Source: a bacterium | GTDB lineage: Bacteria > Patescibacteriota > Microgenomatia > Daviesbacterales > UBA10151 | Length of the DNA: 53,792 nt | Assembly (NCBI GenBank): GCA_030647265.1 | Contig: JAUSJM010000013.1 | Location: 1 to 53,792 of the forward strand | Direction of reading: 5' to 3' | Shown here: positions 5,438 through 53,792 of the stretch, in pieces | Position numbering within the stretch: position 1 is the stretch's first letter | Layout: every line of letters starts with the position of its first letter | Notes under the pieces: generated by a model | The model's database searches: none | Told to the model about the DNA's origin: nothing | What the model saw: only the letters and a program-made list of their open reading frames with translations | Position numbers and translations under genes: made by a program

Positions 5438-6103
5438 TTACACCTCTTCATCAATAGATAGGGAATACAGGGTAGGATCTTCTATCTCTGTTTCTTCAAC
5501 AAAGGCTTGATAACTTAAATTAGGATTAGTCTTAGAAAAATAAGAGATAATTGTCTCAATATCACAAAATGGGTGTTGTTTACCAGAGATATAAGCTCTA
5601 TATGATGAATAGTAGTTATTTTCACCTTCCCACACTCCATGTGGGAATCTAAAACCCAAGGGATTCCTATGGATGTATTTAGAAAGCTGAAGGAGATATT
5701 CTTCATTTTCAATTAACCTGGCTTTAAATGGACCCTGAAAGAGAGAGCCAACACGTTCATATTTGGTGTTGAAGTACCTTGTATAGCTATCAGAAACTTT
5801 CCTCAAAAAAAGTGTCACGCCTCCGTCCTCAAGCTGTTGAATTAAGAGGTGAAAATGGTTTGGCATTAAACAAAAACAGTATATTCTTATCATCTCTTTT
5901 TGATCTTCTATCTTCTTCATCTTTATCACACCTCTTCTAAAATCTGAAAGTTTCATTGGGACTGGTTCTCTTCGGTAATAGTCCAAGGTTTCCAAAAAAC
6001 GCCAATAATCTCTCTTACCCATAAAAATTCCTCTCTTTTCCACACCTCTGTTGTAGATATGATAAAACTCACCAGAAACAAAAGGAGGATTTAACATACT
6101 CAT
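5438..6103 (-). mobile_element. REP-associated tyrosine transposase (RAYT; IS200/IS605 Y1 HUH family), copy 1
   Basis: YHIYNRG, CLMPNHFHLL (HUH), YFNTKYERVGSLFQGPFKA, YIHRNP, SSY; flanked by family A palindromes. Confidence 0.92.
5618..5654 (+). repeat. REP family A copy in frame inside RAYT1
   Basis: Exact duplicate of 5398-5434; encodes FRFPHGVWEGEN between the HRNP and YSSY motifs. Confidence 0.92.
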
Positions 6104-6110
6104 ATGATAT

Positions 6111-6152
6111 ATTTCACCTTCCCACACTTCAAGTGGGAACACGAAAATAATT
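6111..6152 (+). repeat. REP family A variant upstream of RAYT1
   Basis: ATTTCACCTTCCCACACTTCAAGTGGGAACACGAAAATAATT; the last 21 nt match murC 46631-46651 exactly. Confidence 0.85.
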
Positions 6153-23584: not shown

Positions 23585-24262
23585 GTGCCTACAAGAAGTA
23601 TTATCTTTGCCCAGAATCAGGTTTACCATATCTTCAATAGGGGTGTTGCTCATCTGCCAATCTTCTATTCAATTAATAACTACTCTAGATTTTTAGACAC
23701 TCTGAACTATTACCGTTTTACAAATACACCTACAAGTTTTTCCCAGTTTATGAAATCACCACTAGATTCAAGACGGCAAATTACAGATAACCTCCAGAAA
23801 GAGAATGATCTTTTGGTAGAAATATTGGCCTTCTGTTTAATGCCTAACCATTTTCACCTTTTATTAAAGCAAATCTCAGAAAAGGGAATCATTAATTTTA
23901 TGGGAAATGTCCAAAATAGTTATGTTAAATATTTAAACATCAAAGAGGGTAGGATAGGGCCTTTATTCCAATCAGCTTTTAAAGGTAAAAGAATAGAAAC
24001 AGATGAGCAACTTCTTCATGTTTCCAGATATATTCATCTAAATCCTTCCACAAGTTATTTAGTAGAACAGGAAAAATTCGCTGAATATCCCTGGTCCTCA
24101 TTACCAATTTACATATCTAACTCATCCACATATAACACTTTTGTTAACCCAAGGCTAATTTTAGAGTTCTTCAAGAGTGGAGAAAAATATAGAGAATTTC
24201 TCGACGACCAAGCTGGATATCAACAGGAATTAGCAAATATTAAACACCTAACTATGGAATAG
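23585..24262 (+). mobile_element. RAYT-like tyrosine transposase, copy 2
   Basis: YHIFNRG, CLMPNHFHLL, GPLFQSAFK, YIHLNP, YPWSS; palindromes on both sides. Confidence 0.92.
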
Positions 24263-33692: not shown

Positions 33693-34337
33693 TTAGTTGG
33701 TGTAAATTGCTCCTCCTTTTTCAATAGTCACCTCCCGGGTTTGGGCGGGATCTCCATCAAGCTGCAAGGTAATGACCATCCTGTTTTGAGGCTGAAAAGC
33801 AGGACAGCCGGAATTAGTGCTGTCAAACTGAAAAGTTACCAAGTTAGTGATCGTACCAAAGAACACCTCAGCTCCGAAATTAGTCAGGTCTATTCCGTGG
33901 CAAGCACTAACCTCAATGCCGGTATGAGCAGGAGGAGACGTTTTATTTTTAATACTCACCCCTGTAGGCAGATTATAGGTAGTGGGAGTGGGGGTTGTGC
34001 CATCAGAGCATTTAGGACCGATCTGGTAAGATTTAACTGAGGATGAAGGAGTATCGTAGATAAAACTTAGGTACCAAGAGGAAGCAGAGATCCCGTCAGA
34101 GCATTTAGTACTGGATGAGGCGTTATTTTGAGCTGCGCGGAGGGATGACTGCAGCTGCTCCATTCCGTCCTGTAAAGATCCGTAAGTTGCATATTTGGTC
34201 AATTGGGGTAAAACTAAAGTCACCAGTCCTGCCATAATAGCTACTGCTACCAAAAGTTCCATAAGGGTGAAACCCTTACAAGATCTTTTGCGAAGCAAAA
34301 GTAGACTTATAAGGGTGAAACCGTTTACCTTGGGCAT
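33693..34337 (-). CDS. Pilin (FimT/GspH-like) with duplicated GFTL leader
   Basis: MPKVNGFTLISLLLLRKRSCKGFTLMELLVA; LQSSLRAAQNNA; C-terminal IEKGGAI. Confidence 0.85.
   Translation of the reverse strand: MPKVNGFTLISLLLLRKRSCKGFTLMELLVAVAIMAGLVTLVLPQLTKYATYGSLQDGMEQLQSSLRAAQNNASSSTKCSDGISASSWYLSFIYDTPSSSVKSYQIGPKCSDGTTPTPTTYNLPTGVSIKNKTSPPAHTGIEVSACHGIDLTNFGAEVFFGTITNLVTFQFDSTNSGCPAFQPQNRMVITLQLDGDPAQTREVTIEKGGAIYTN
34261..34322 (-). repeat. 48-bp hairpin insertion with a 14-bp direct repeat in a prepilin leader
   Basis: ATAAGGGTGAAACC at 34261 and 34309 flank the CTTTTGC-GAA-GCAAAAG hairpin (34285-34301). Confidence 0.88.
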
Positions 34338-34372: not shown

Positions 34373-34924
34373 TCAGGGAGGAGAAAGACCAATCTTACAG
34401 GTTGTAGAATTACAAGTTTGAGGGGAACCACAAGCAGAGGGAACCTCATAAGTGCCAGTACCTTCCTGCCAGGCACATAAGGCATAACTTACACACTCCC
34501 CATAGGCTTCACAGGGAGCGGGAGAGACCGGTAAAGCTAGGTAGACATATCCCTGTCCAGTGCTGGGATCTTTCGGCACCTGATCTAAATAGGTTTTACC
34601 ATTACTACCATCTGCTTTTTTACAGGGAGATCCAGAGCTGTCTGGAGAACAGAGAGGGGAACCGGGAGCAGGAAAGGCAGTAGAAGCAGGGTAATAATGC
34701 CAATCGTGACGGTACAGCTCTAAGGCCTTGGAGATTGAACCCAAATCCAGAAGTCTTCTCTTGTCATGGTTATTTTTTAAGGTTGAAGAAAAAACAGAAG
34801 CTCCGATAGCTACAAGAAGCGTCAGTATGGCTACTGTTACTAGCAGCTCAATGAGAGTGAATCCCTTCTTGGCCCTACTGTTCAAGCCACGTCGAGAACA
34901 TCTTACTATTTGTCTTCTCATCAT
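34373..34924 (-). CDS. GspG/PilA-like pilin
   Basis: KGFTLIELLV; DKRRLLDL..ISKALELY..YYP; VPKDP; YALCA. Confidence 0.88.
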   Translation of the reverse strand: MMRRQIVRCSRRGLNSRAKKGFTLIELLVTVAILTLLVAIGASVFSSTLKNNHDKRRLLDLGSISKALELYRHDWHYYPASTAFPAPGSPLCSPDSSGSPCKKADGSNGKTYLDQVPKDPSTGQGYVYLALPVSPAPCEAYGECVSYALCAWQEGTGTYEVPSACGSPQTCNSTTCKIGLSPP

Positions 34925-35484
34925 GGAGATATGACCTCATACCCATCAACGGTAGGGTCATAAGTATTAGGGCAAGCAGTATCTTGCTTATCCGAAGTTT
35001 TCTCCATCTTGGCATAAAGACAATAAATTACACACTTTGTGGTAGCTGAAGTGTTATCACACTCAGTTTGAGGACTGAGACTGGCATAAGGGTGATATAG
35101 AAAGGGAGTAGTAGCAGTGAGATCTACTGGCAGTTTACTAGAATAATTTTTAGTAGGATTAGGGCTGCTACAAGGATTAATATTGGGATTGCCGGTACAG
35201 TTAGTCAAGGAAGATCCAAAGGTTAAGGGGTTAGGCGCTGGGGCCAGGGCAGGGAAAAACCCCTGGTCGGAGTAATACTGCTGCAGCAGGCTCTGGATAA
35301 CCCCTAAATCCGACCTTCTTTTATCATCTCTAGCTCCTTTCTGAAAGCTGGAAAAAGTGCTGATGGAGATGATTATCAGGATAGCCATAATGGTAATAAC
35401 TACCAGCAGTTCAATAAGAGTAAACCCGCTCAAATTTGTTCTTAAATTTGTTCGGGTAAAGCCTTTATCCTTCATGACTTTCAT
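34921..35484 (-). CDS. GspG/PilA-like pilin with duplicated GFT leader
   Basis: KGFTRTNLRTNLSGFTLIELLV; ARDDKRRSDL; YCLYAKME. Confidence 0.88.
   Translation of the reverse strand: MKVMKDKGFTRTNLRTNLSGFTLIELLVVITIMAILIIISISTFSSFQKGARDDKRRSDLGVIQSLLQQYYSDQGFFPALAPAPNPLTFGSSLTNCTGNPNINPCSSPNPTKNYSSKLPVDLTATTPFLYHPYASLSPQTECDNTSATTKCVIYCLYAKMEKTSDKQDTACPNTYDPTVDGYEVISP
35420..35463 (-). repeat. 36-bp hairpin insertion duplicating GFT in a prepilin leader
   Basis: GTAAACCC (35420) and GTAAAGCC (35456) are 36 nt apart and enclose the CCCG..CAAATTT / AAATTTG..CGGG stem. Confidence 0.8.
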
Positions 35485-36669: not shown

Positions 36670-37596
36670 TCAATACCCCAGTTTGAAGCTGGAAAAATAC
36701 AAATTTAAAATTTGTGGGGCCCAAAGAAAGGCTAAGACAGCCCCCAAACTGAGGAATGGTCCAAAGGGAATAGTTTGCCCAAAACTTTTCCTTCCCAGAG
36801 CAATCAGTCCCAGGGAAAATACAGCCCCTAAGAGGAAGGCCAGGAGAAGGGCTACCATAATTTGAGGAAACCCTAAAGCCAGACCTAAAAAGAGAACAAA
36901 CTTCACATCCCCCCAACCCATGCCTCTTCCTTTGGTGACAACTATTAACAGTACAAAGAGCAGGGCCATCCCTAAGGCCCAACTGATATCCCAAACCTTG
37001 TTTAAAACTAACCTTTGAACAACATCAGAAAAGTAGTGGGAACGGGGAGGTAAAAGATAACTGCCAAAAGGCGAGGAGAGGATACTTTGATAAAAAGTCC
37101 AAATCTTTAACCCTAAAGAAACTAAGATATAAGCAGCGCTTATCAACACAGCAGGATATGTAATACGATCCGGAATTAACCCTGTCTTTAAATCCGTCAA
37201 AAAAACAACGGCTAAAACAACCACTGTAAATATTTTAAACAGCAGGTCTAAAAGCAGGGAAACGTTGTCCCAGGTAAAATTCATCGGAAAGACCAGGGCA
37301 GAAGGAGTACTGGCAAAGATAAAAGCTACCGTTACTCCTAAAACTATCTCTACTCCTAAATTTAAGGAAGGAATTTTCTTATGGCAGTAACGGCACCTGC
37401 CTTTTAATAAGAGATATGATAAAACAGGAAAAAGGTCGTACCAGGCAAGCTTTCTCTTGCAACTTAAACAGTACGACCTTCCCCAAAAAGATACCTTTTT
37501 TGTACTTCGGTCTGCCAAAGCTTTTGCTAAACTTCCTAATATTGTCCCAAGTACAAAACCAAAAACAATTAATCCTAAGCTATTGTTCATACCCAA
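36670..37596 (-). CDS. pilD: Prepilin peptidase
   Basis: RSYCLSC...DLFPVLSYLLLKGRCRYC, TDLKTGLIPD, GMGWGDVK, IPFGPFL. Confidence 0.95.
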   Translation of the reverse strand: MGMNNSLGLIVFGFVLGTILGSLAKALADRSTKKVSFWGRSYCLSCKRKLAWYDLFPVLSYLLLKGRCRYCHKKIPSLNLGVEIVLGVTVAFIFASTPSALVFPMNFTWDNVSLLLDLLFKIFTVVVLAVVFLTDLKTGLIPDRITYPAVLISAAYILVSLGLKIWTFYQSILSSPFGSYLLPPRSHYFSDVVQRLVLNKVWDISWALGMALLFVLLIVVTKGRGMGWGDVKFVLFLGLALGFPQIMVALLLAFLLGAVFSLGLIALGRKSFGQTIPFGPFLSLGAVLAFLWAPQILNLYFSSFKLGY

Positions 37597-53254: not shown

Positions 53255-53792
53255 TTATTCCTCCTCAAGCAGTAGATGTTTCATAATCTCTAGCTCCTTA
53301 GCATAATCTCCATGCCCTCCAACAAAATCCTTATAATCGTTACTATTTTTAAAGTTGTTTAGAACAGAATCCGCTACACATAACTGATCATGATCAACAT
53401 CTATAAAGTGCTGGTAAGATGAGTAAGGATAAAGCTTCAATTCTTGAACCAACTCACTCACATAAGGATTAAGGTGAATATAACGAGAAACATGAAGCAG
53501 TTGGATCTCATCTTCTATTAAAACTGTTTTAAATACTCCCTGGAATAGTGGTCCCACTCTTGTATGCTTAGTGTTGAAATATTTAGTATAGCTGTTCAGT
53601 ACTTTTCCTATGAATTCCGAAATACCGTTATCTTGCAGCTGCCTAACTAGGAGATGAAAGTGATTAGGCATGAGGCAGTAACAGATAACCTCTACAACTT
53701 TAGGATTATGGCTAAAATCATTAATTTTAAAGCGGTTACGATCTGAAAAAGGGGGCTTAGGTCCAGTAAACTGATAATAATAAAGCGTCTTT
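53255..53792 (-). mobile_element. RAYT-like tyrosine transposase, copy 3 (5' end outside the window)
   Basis: Frame is open to the window edge (KTLYYYQFTGPKPPFS...YCLMPNHFHLL); GPLFQGVFK, YIHLNP, YPYSSY. Confidence 0.9.

Follow-up and report, generated by a model that had tools for sequence, protein, structure and literature searches.

The prepilin gene at 33693..34337 of contig JAUSJM010000013.1 (assembly GCA_030647265.1) carries a 48-nt insert in its leader, bounded by two copies of the GFTL motif at which prepilins are cleaved. The contig's whole 53,792-nt stretch of DNA was analysed and is called the window here. On balance, though with no great confidence, we read this insert as a copy of a small mobile element of Daviesbacteria-like candidate phyla radiation (CPR) genomes that lacks an open reading frame (ORF), replaces the ends of genes, and probably moves as single-strand DNA by an HUH/Y1-type reaction. 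The prepilin insert is the visible tip of a wider family that is not specific to pilins. Copies of the same hairpin stand at the ends of tRNA genes and at the 5' ends of conserved protein genes, where they are accompanied by a second copy of the gene end.

The protein encoded by the prepilin gene begins MPKVN-GFTL-ISLLLLRKRSCK-GFTL-MELLVAVAIMAG, with MELL following the second GFTL. On the forward strand, positions 34261-34277 and 34309-34325 are direct repeats that agree at 16 of 17 positions (14 nt exact) and start 48 nt apart. Between them lies a 31-nt hairpin (34278-34308), and the inserted stretch comprises the 48 nt at 34261-34308. A preliminary description of this DNA had reported an exact 14-bp direct repeat at 48-nt spacing enclosing CTTTTGC-GAA-GCAAAAG, which we confirmed at 34261-34325. 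It had further held that only the second GFTL is followed by Glu at position +5; this is the case, the residue after the first GFTL being Ser, and the Pfam N_methyl domain (PF07963, 1.8e-08) covers residues 18-36, that is, the second GFTL-MELL. The 785-kb genome has nine further prepilin-type GFTL(I/V)E sites, and none of them encodes GFTL by the 14-mer of the repeat. Convergence between paralogues is thereby set aside in favour of a genuine duplication. By shuffling, an exact 17-mer hairpin is expected 0.05 times per window, and the 76-nt hairpin region folds as DNA at -11.9 kcal/mol (z = -3.28), a value equalled by none of 200 shuffles.

The ends of the insert, AAGTCTAC and GATCTTGT on the coding strand, recur at three more sites in the same genome (G000) by short-word BLAST, for a total of four copies. 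One of these sites lies on contig C31 just 5' of typA, and the other two lie on contig C30 after tRNA-Lys and tRNA-Glu. The family core consists of AAGTCTAC, a covarying stem-loop and GATCTTGT. Searches of 96 genomes of the order recovered the exact two-ended pattern in 14 genomes, with a single match to the reversed control, and a covariance model yielded 62 matches in 23 genomes. The prepilin site scores 52.7 bits in this model (E ~4e-10), and the highest copy numbers are found in G062 (19), G064 and G070 (5 each), and G000 and G065 (4 each). These counts bear out the earlier proposal that the insert is a small element.

In a scan of species representatives, matches with element architecture came from Candidatus Daviesbacteria records and one other CPR metagenome-assembled genome, and matches outside CPR records lacked that architecture. 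A looser pattern run over the whole collection returned 115 stretches; among the matches listed (80 of 115), most were chance matches in unrelated, largely GC-rich genomes, and the relevant records were the same two CPR records. Three DPANN archaeal records (L020, L022, L023) have both end motifs around a hairpin, with conserved coding-like flanks, and are probably chance matches or a conserved gene segment. At the C30 locus Rfam identifies two tRNAs and nothing else. Full-text literature searches, which had supplements and subscription papers outside their scope, found no description of such an element.

A structure model was built from 24 aligned cores picked by their conserved ends, so that the covarying part was unconstrained. 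In this fold, a 4x2 internal loop separates a lower stem of 6 bp from an upper stem of 7 bp that is capped by an apical loop, with 89% pairing across the 24 cores. Five of the seven upper-stem pairs change on both sides, and none of 500 shuffles reaches the observed covariation; compensatory variants of the lower stem (AAG/CTT, AGG/CCT and AAC/GTT) occur among the weaker matches. Among 57 copies, 27 have an apical loop that reads C-GNA-G on one strand; none has this reading on the opposite strand. Passages in two reports describe GCGAAGC and C-GNA-G as a very stable DNA mini-hairpin motif (PMC13037366, PMC3201870), in agreement with the stability that the preliminary description had ascribed to GCGAAGC. 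The base before the core is T in 55 of 57 copies, mostly as ..AT, and the join between element and chromosome sits in a paired region at a conserved T.G (55/57 copies).

Many copies share one order of parts. In the AAGTCTAC-to-GATCTTGT direction, a partial gene end (D1) is followed by the core, an inverted copy of D, a loop or spacer, and a further copy of the gene end (D2). D2 is continuous with the intact gene, the GATCTTGT side always points toward that gene, and the inverted copy extends the hairpin. A direct duplicate of 10-31 nt was found automatically in 28 of the 57 copies. Around 16 cases involve the T-loop of a tRNA, called by eye from the T-arm pattern, with ARAGORN confirmation for the own-genome locus only; here D measures 16-20 nt and runs from the T-loop to the tRNA 3' end, and the repeats, where measured, lie 59-163 nt apart with no kilobase cargo between them. 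One further copy (L094), in sense orientation, has as its duplicate the 16 nt from a tRNA 5' end to the D-loop. In protein genes, the duplicates are 11-38 nt long, the spacer holds a clear GGAGG-type Shine-Dalgarno (SD) sequence and an ATG for D2 (the SD being strong in typA, lepA, ftsZ and gatB), and D1 keeps the former start codon and is left as a short ORF upstream.

This range of targets speaks against the earlier view that the element aims at GFTL codons specifically, because the same core stands at tRNA 3' and 5' ends and at the 5' ends of typA, lepA, ftsZ, gatB and rpsU. The core is sense in protein genes and antisense in the tRNA T-loop cases; the only geometry common to them is therefore at the level of DNA. 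Tandem copies in G062 (L047) and G076 (L065/L079), in which the second copy begins directly after the second hairpin of the first, are nested or serial insertions.

A folded hairpin joined to the chromosome at a fixed point might also be a recombination site for a tyrosine recombinase, as when integron attC recombines with attI, or CTX-phage attP(+) with dif through the host Xer system. The stem of a dumbbell-shaped single strand would then mimic the target duplex, one strand would be exchanged beside the core, and replication would resolve the joint. We consider this route unlikely. The core does follow attC-like logic, in that its basal box is conserved, a bubble is left unpaired and the apical stem varies and covaries, and one of its variants reads AAC...GTT; the join falls in a paired region at the conserved T.G, and tyrosine recombinases (PF00589) are present in 96 of 96 genomes. 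However, the PF00589 census gives no extra tyrosine recombinase in element-rich genomes (two genes in G062, one found in G000), and the copies are dispersed, without cassette arrays or attI, at targets that share only ..AT. In G062, a tyrosine-recombinase gene (G062:C3:93120-93602) lies ~0.8 kb from an element copy (94440-94477), which could be chance, given 19 copies in 800 kb.

The gene-end-replacement reading depends on the origin of D2. The preliminary description had the second GFTL regenerated from the target; instead, it is probably carried by the element, within its second hairpin. Codon changes between D1 and D2, summed over 14 protein-coding cases, are synonymous in 39 instances and non-synonymous in 5 (7 and 1 in ftsZ, 14 and 0 in three lepA cases). 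A decaying D1 would show mostly non-synonymous changes, so the synonymous excess points to D2 being part of the element. Further, in cases with differing D1 and D2, the inverted copy pairs better with D2 in 9 of 14, with D1 in 3, and equally with both in 2, and its preference for D2 has large margins in L033, L041, L049 and L097. Two loci of G062, L083 and L084, have an identical core and second hairpin at two intergenic sites and share only AT or TTAT with their flanks; integration itself therefore appears to create no long duplication. One and the same 17-nt D2 occurs in four pilin inserts from three genomes (L031, L027, L030, L078), with variable D1. In the three filled typA genomes, the native leader, a hairpin plus T-run, stands before D1, and a Ser codon is common to D2 of G000 and G072, where D1 and the empty congeners G070 and G071 have Asn. 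Compared in this way, D2 looks element-borne rather than copied from the target, and the prepilin D2 at 34261..34277 may be the element's own second hairpin.

By contrast, a transposon resembling a miniature inverted-repeat transposable element (MITE), cutting with a 17-18-nt stagger, would make D1 and D2 plain target-site duplications. In the ~16 tRNA cases and in the pilin copies L031 and L082, D is indeed 16-18 nt long and mostly exact, and the element is palindromic. Such a stagger does not fit L083 and L084, where any duplication is at most 2-4 nt, nor the protein genes, with duplicates of 11-38 nt and their 39 synonymous differences against 5; nor does it account for the better fit of the inverted copy to D2. 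The distance from T-loop to 3' end alone explains 17-18 nt in tRNAs, and we read the constant length there as that distance. We regard the MITE explanation as quite improbable.

Several comparisons bear on whether elements with their own gene ends have moved. On C30, tRNA-Lys and tRNA-Glu are each followed by a 97-nt unit that includes the core; the two units differ at no more than 2 positions, and each abuts a copy of the last 17-18 nt of its own tRNA. These units and the identical L083/L084 pair are signs of recent mobility. At typA the element is present in 3 of 30 loci, and G070 and G071, congeners of the filled G072, are empty. A tRNA that is filled in G084 and G085 is element-free, at 81-97% identity, in 4 of 5 congeners tested. 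At G089:C1:293890-294121, this tRNA matches in two pieces ~157 nt apart, which suggests an insertion or intron near its middle. Most typA genes in loci L102-L127 have upstream a promoter-like box that is conserved and, right before the start codon, a GC hairpin plus T-run, and in the 16 element-free typA loci read the gene mostly starts after this conserved hairpin-plus-T-run leader, which looks like an attenuator or a terminator-type structure.

These copies could in principle be host-beneficial cis-regulatory RNAs (a hairpin in the 5' leader that offers a decoy start, or a 3' trailer hairpin on tRNAs) that spread by homologous recombination only. In favour of this, D1 and D2 are both possible partners of the inverted copy, as in an attenuator; typA, lepA, ftsZ and gatB are supplied with a strong SD; and a sense transcript would have a U.G wobble where the DNA has its conserved T.G. 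An RNA function is hard to square with a core that is sense in protein genes and antisense in tRNAs, or with identical copies at unrelated intergenic sites, tandem and nested copies, and patchy distribution within genera, and we think it improbable.

In prepilin leaders, the insert recurs in six DNA cases in four genomes (L031, which is 33693..34337 in G000; L027 and L078 in G044; L030 in G064; L045 and L082 in G062) and four database proteins, all with the insert at the same codon position. The four proteins (P0005, P0011, P0014, P0016) are among 16 found with prepilin 33693..34337, whose homologues have 36-45% identity over at least 90% of its length. All six DNA inserts are 48 nt long, in frame and open (16 codons, no stop), and encode a basic peptide, I/V-(S/R)LL...R(K/R/E)RSC(K/Q), followed by GFTL(I/M/V)E; a second canonical K/Q-GFTL(I/M/V)E site is left in every case. 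The pilin cases have no separate inverted copy. Rather, the K/Q-G-F-T-L codons of D2 pair with themselves in a 5-bp stem, mostly AAGGG...CCCTT and, with a compensatory change, CAAGG...CCTTG in L045; the D1 copies are not self-complementary. Because the K-G-F-T-L codons are themselves a palindrome, the whole pilin element is only 48 nt.

In-frame ATG, GTG and TTG codons are absent from three of the six inserts, so that in these genes ribosomes must start at the native ATG and read across the insert. A start after the first GFTL, which would undercut the proposal in the preliminary description, thus does not apply to these three. It could still apply to prepilin 33693..34337, which has an in-frame TTG, though one that sits within the hairpin stem without an SD. 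In the predicted precursor MPKVN-GFTL-I-SLLLLRKRSCK/FTLMELL..., PilD would cut at the second G-F bond and remove the insert. Since the basic insert peptide ends in K-G before F, Glu stands at +5 and the operon encodes a PilD-type peptidase, cleavage at the second site would give a normal mature pilin. It is plausible, as the preliminary description proposed, that the insert is erased by this predicted cleavage ('self-cleaning'), which fits its recurrence in leaders. That description's further suggestions, a safe harbour or a way to tune the pilin, are more speculative possibilities. A hairpin within the first 60 nt of the mRNA might also lower translation.

Two further accounts of the prepilin repeats fare worse. 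Programmed ribosome bypassing between repeats, as in T4 gene 60 or mitochondrial 'byp', would suit matching codons around a ~50-nt hairpin-forming insert; the insert is, however, open and in frame over 16 codons in 6 of 6 pilins, and D2 of the protein genes has its own SD and ATG, so bypassing is not needed and we hold it to be very improbable. Local slippage or tandem duplication unique to prepilin 33693..34337, in which template switching can yield direct repeats around a palindrome, is refuted by the 31-nt core elsewhere in the genome and in 22 other genomes, and we give it practically no credence.

Other double leader motifs occur nearby and in databases. The first 80 nt of the adjacent pilin gene, 34921..35484 (minus strand), encode the double motif MKVMKDK-GFT-RTNLRTNLS-GFTLIELL, in which the DNA between the GFT motifs contains a 12-nt tandem repeat and lacks the core (the covariance model has one match in the window); this may be a second type of leader duplication. 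The leader of database protein P0038, GFTRQNFTKKISG-GFTL, resembles it. In database protein P0053, the leader K-GFTLIRS-GFTLIELL is a duplication of 7 residues, perhaps what an element copy has left behind as a decayed remnant or a footprint.

We propose that the gene-end-replacing element has two parts: the conserved core hairpin, with its lower stem, asymmetric internal loop and freely varying upper stem, and a second hairpin whose 3' strand would be a copy of the host gene's end. The element would join the chromosome just after a T, usually in ..AT, within a conserved gene end, leaving the native end D1 outside and splicing its own D2 onto the gene. With the spare gene end that the element would bring, the gene would stay intact. 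Protein genes would gain a new SD, start codon and first codons; tRNAs, a new stretch from T-loop to 3' end; and prepilins, a new basic leader with K-GFTL. When its right end is joined to its left end, the element could form one long imperfect helix, in which the stem of D2 and the inverted copy would stack on the lower stem of the core. This 'dumbbell' would be capped at one end by the spacer loop and at the other by the core upper stem, with the join ..AT/AAG opposite the conserved T.G. Since the inverted copy may bring either D1 or D2 to one and the same place next to the core, an enzyme bound there could cut both junctions. Resealing D1 to the gene would amount to seamless excision, joining D2 to the core would make a circle, and the reverse reaction would integrate the element wherever the guide meets a matching ..AT site.

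As in the 'peel and paste' of IS200/IS605, sites would be found by a DNA guide, here the inverted copy, through its pairing with D2 when the element is excised and with the target when it integrates. An HUH/Y1-type enzyme would presumably act in trans, next to the core, on a single-stranded circular intermediate. For IS608, passages in three papers describe DNA base pairing as the means by which cleavage and target sites are recognised, and report seamless excision and a single-strand intermediate that is circular (PMC5934647, PMC3201880, PMC5027513). It is possible, if rather doubtful, that these elements make up a new class of minimal mobile DNA: a gene-less single-strand 'dumbbell' of ~50-160 nt that homes across species to the most conserved gene ends (tRNA T-arms, the N-termini of GTPases and FtsZ, the prepilin cleavage motif) by base pairing through a built-in 10-17-nt DNA guide, spares its host by carrying a replacement end with its own expression signals, and is erased from mature prepilins by leader cleavage.

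Candidate enzymes for such a reaction are at hand. The Y1 transposase family (PF01797) has six Pfam matches in the genome, three of them inside the 54-kb window, and is multi-copy across the order; the RAYT-like HUH proteins are 215-276 aa long and have an HFH motif. Y1_Tnp is present in 5 of 5 element-bearing genomes tested. There are no notable inverted repeats in the 3.3-kb locus of the single Y1 gene of G062, and RVT_1 (reverse transcriptase) is found in 0 of 5 element-bearing genomes tested. Four other ideas were considered and dropped: a retroelement or primer-binding-site-like origin (no reverse transcriptase found), similarity to Xer/dif (no sequence likeness by eye), a kink-turn (no G.A pairs) and a casposon-like target-site duplication.

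Contigs of the source metagenome bear on the prepilin site itself. The public contig over the prepilin gene terminates at 34290, within the hairpin. Further contigs match 34249-34310, with the D2-core stretch, exactly, and several cover only 34230-34326, at higher depth; the comparison covered assembled contigs from a single study. Assemblies seem to break at the element.

A number of observations weigh against a mobile single-strand element of this kind. No enzyme is linked to the element so far: Y1_Tnp is also present in 4 of 5 element-free genomes, the single Y1 copy of G062 has homologues in 74 of 96 genomes, element-bearing and element-free alike, and the covariance model finds no core in the 3-kb loci around three Y1 genes or in the window outside the prepilin site. 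Upper-stem mismatches are 7 G.T against 5 A.C, a ratio without strand bias that does not identify the strand that folds. After tRNA-Lys on C30, the inverted segment matches tRNA-Glu and not Lys; a strict guide model therefore fails there, nor does the model account for how a new inverted copy arises for a new target. A fresh target duplication of 17-18 nt would have the same appearance as the repeats of prepilin 33693..34337 (16/17 identical) and as the many tRNA cases with identical D1 and D2. The assembled contigs of the one study include none that joins across an empty pilin site, and no circle or excision product. Finally, the empty-site orthologs that the preliminary description proposed to look for have a counterpart in more distant relatives. 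Ten of 11 homologues read have a single GFTL leader; none is an orthologous empty site in a congener, and only more distant homologues lack the insert. The congener G043 has only 40-56% N-terminal matches to the two G044 pilins, so it allows no same-gene comparison.

The prepilin gene lies in a pilus operon that encodes PilB, PilT, PilC, a PilD-type A24 peptidase, PilM and eight N_methyl proteins, including 33693..34337. The features of the window and the protein-gene targets in other genomes are collected in Table 1.

Table 1. Features of the prepilin locus and window, and protein-gene sites of the hairpin family by genome
Feature	Position or genomes	Strand	Basis or remark
Prepilin (minor-pilin-like) ORF, intact, 214 aa, insert in leader	33693..34337	-	ORF listing and Pfam N_methyl
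Native ATG, leader MPKVN	34335..34337	-	Sole start codon in the open frame 5' of the first GFTL
D1, outer target copy (N-G-F-T-L-I/M codons), read as the native gene end	34309..34325	-	By analogy with typA
Core hairpin: lower stem, 4x2 internal loop, covarying upper stem, triloop (C-GAA-G, + strand)	34278..34308	-	Fold, covariation and covariance model
Core upper stem: perfect 7-bp stem and 3-nt loop, CTTTTGC-GAA-GCAAAAG, containing GCGAAGC (+ strand)	34285..34301		
D2, inner copy (K-G-F-T-L-M codons), self-complementary (5-bp stem)	34261..34277	-	Supplies the canonical cleavage site
Prepilin peptidase, PilD-type A24	36670..37596	-	A24_N_bact 1.9e-21, Peptidase_A24 8e-12
Y1 HUH (IS200-like/RAYT-like) protein, candidate trans-acting enzyme only	5438..6142	-	Pfam
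Second Y1 HUH-like protein, candidate only	23585..24262	+	Pfam
Third Y1 HUH (IS200-like/RAYT-like) gene	53255..53791	-	Pfam
typA 5' end	G000, G062, G072		
lepA 5' end	G070, G065, G064		
ftsZ 5' end	G065		
gatB 5' end	G065, G064		
rpsU 5' end	G062		
Copy just 5' of the L25 gene start	G062		No duplicated gene end identified

If the gene-end-replacement reading is right, tiny CPR genomes host a gene-less parasite or commensal within essential genes (typA, lepA, ftsZ, gatB and tRNAs), where it would be tolerated because it restores the gene end that it displaces. To our knowledge, such restoration is known for kilobase tRNA islands and not for a 50-nt hairpin or for the 5' ends of protein genes. 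The element would also show, in nature, insertion that is directed by a long DNA guide and can be re-targeted. The odd 'double GFTL' prepilin leaders of metagenomic proteins would find an explanation, and a source of mis-called starts and assembly breaks would be flagged. For pilus biology, it would offer a simple test of how much extra leader length PilD tolerates.

Several known systems share single features with the element. T4 gene 60 and 'byp' likewise have a short hairpin-forming coding insert with matching codons at its flanks, but the insert described here is in frame and open, and its removal is proposed to occur at the protein level, by PilD. The definition of a MITE does not apply, as there is no fixed-length duplication at every copy (none in L083/L084, 11-38 nt in others). 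The integrative mobile elements exploiting Xer (IMEX) of CTX phage rely on a folded single strand that mimics the target, a formal match for the stem of D2 and the inverted copy; unlike them, the element uses many gene ends instead of dif and has no phage genome attached. Integron attC sites have R''/R' boxes of the form RYYYAAC...GTTRRRY, lie in cassette arrays and are recombined by the IntI integrase. The core resembles them in its conserved basal box, unpaired bubble and an apical stem conserved in structure only, and a strand-specific folded form is plausible for it too; the consensus differs, however, there are no arrays, attI or dedicated integrase, and the cargo is a gene end rather than an ORF.

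Closer likenesses are found in tRNA islands and in two kinds of hairpin element. Like tRNA islands and prophages, the element integrates at the T-loop, with a repeat that runs to the tRNA 3' end, a copy, presumably its own, that restores the gene, and the native end left outside; unlike them, it spans 59-163 nt, lacks an integrase gene, and has a core that also targets protein 5' ends and pilin leaders. Repetitive extragenic palindromic sequences (REPs) lie outside genes, are marked by GTAG on the 5' side of the stem and occur in clusters about a RAYT gene. With REPs and REPINs the element shares short, dispersed, imperfect palindromes, a conserved tetranucleotide at the foot of a variable stem, and RAYT-like HUH proteins in the same genomes. 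Unlike the REP/RAYT system, its foot is CTAC 5' of the stem on the sense strand, and its copies lie inside gene ends, carry gene-end copies and stand away from the Y1 genes examined.

IS200/IS605 elements, including palindrome-associated transposable elements (PATEs) and IS608, are likewise defined by hairpins, and Y1 genes are present in the genomes concerned. They insert 3' of a short target without duplication; L083 and L084 agree with this, and the copies with a direct repeat of 10-31 nt (28 of 57) would do so if that repeat is element-borne, as we read it. The palindromes that correspond to theirs are the covarying core and the second hairpin directly after it, of which only the core is conserved in sequence. 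In contrast to IS200/IS605, a single conserved hairpin stands right at the junction, the putative guide has a length of ~10-17 nt where theirs has 4-5 nt, the element carries a gene-end copy, and tnpA is absent within or beside the copies examined; it is at most a putative derivative of IS200/IS605. Taken as a whole, the element works most like the IS200/IS605-type or REP-type hairpin elements, combined with the 'bring your own gene end' logic of tRNA islands. Among mobile hairpin elements without an ORF, the second hairpin that replaces a gene end is apparently an unusual and undescribed feature.

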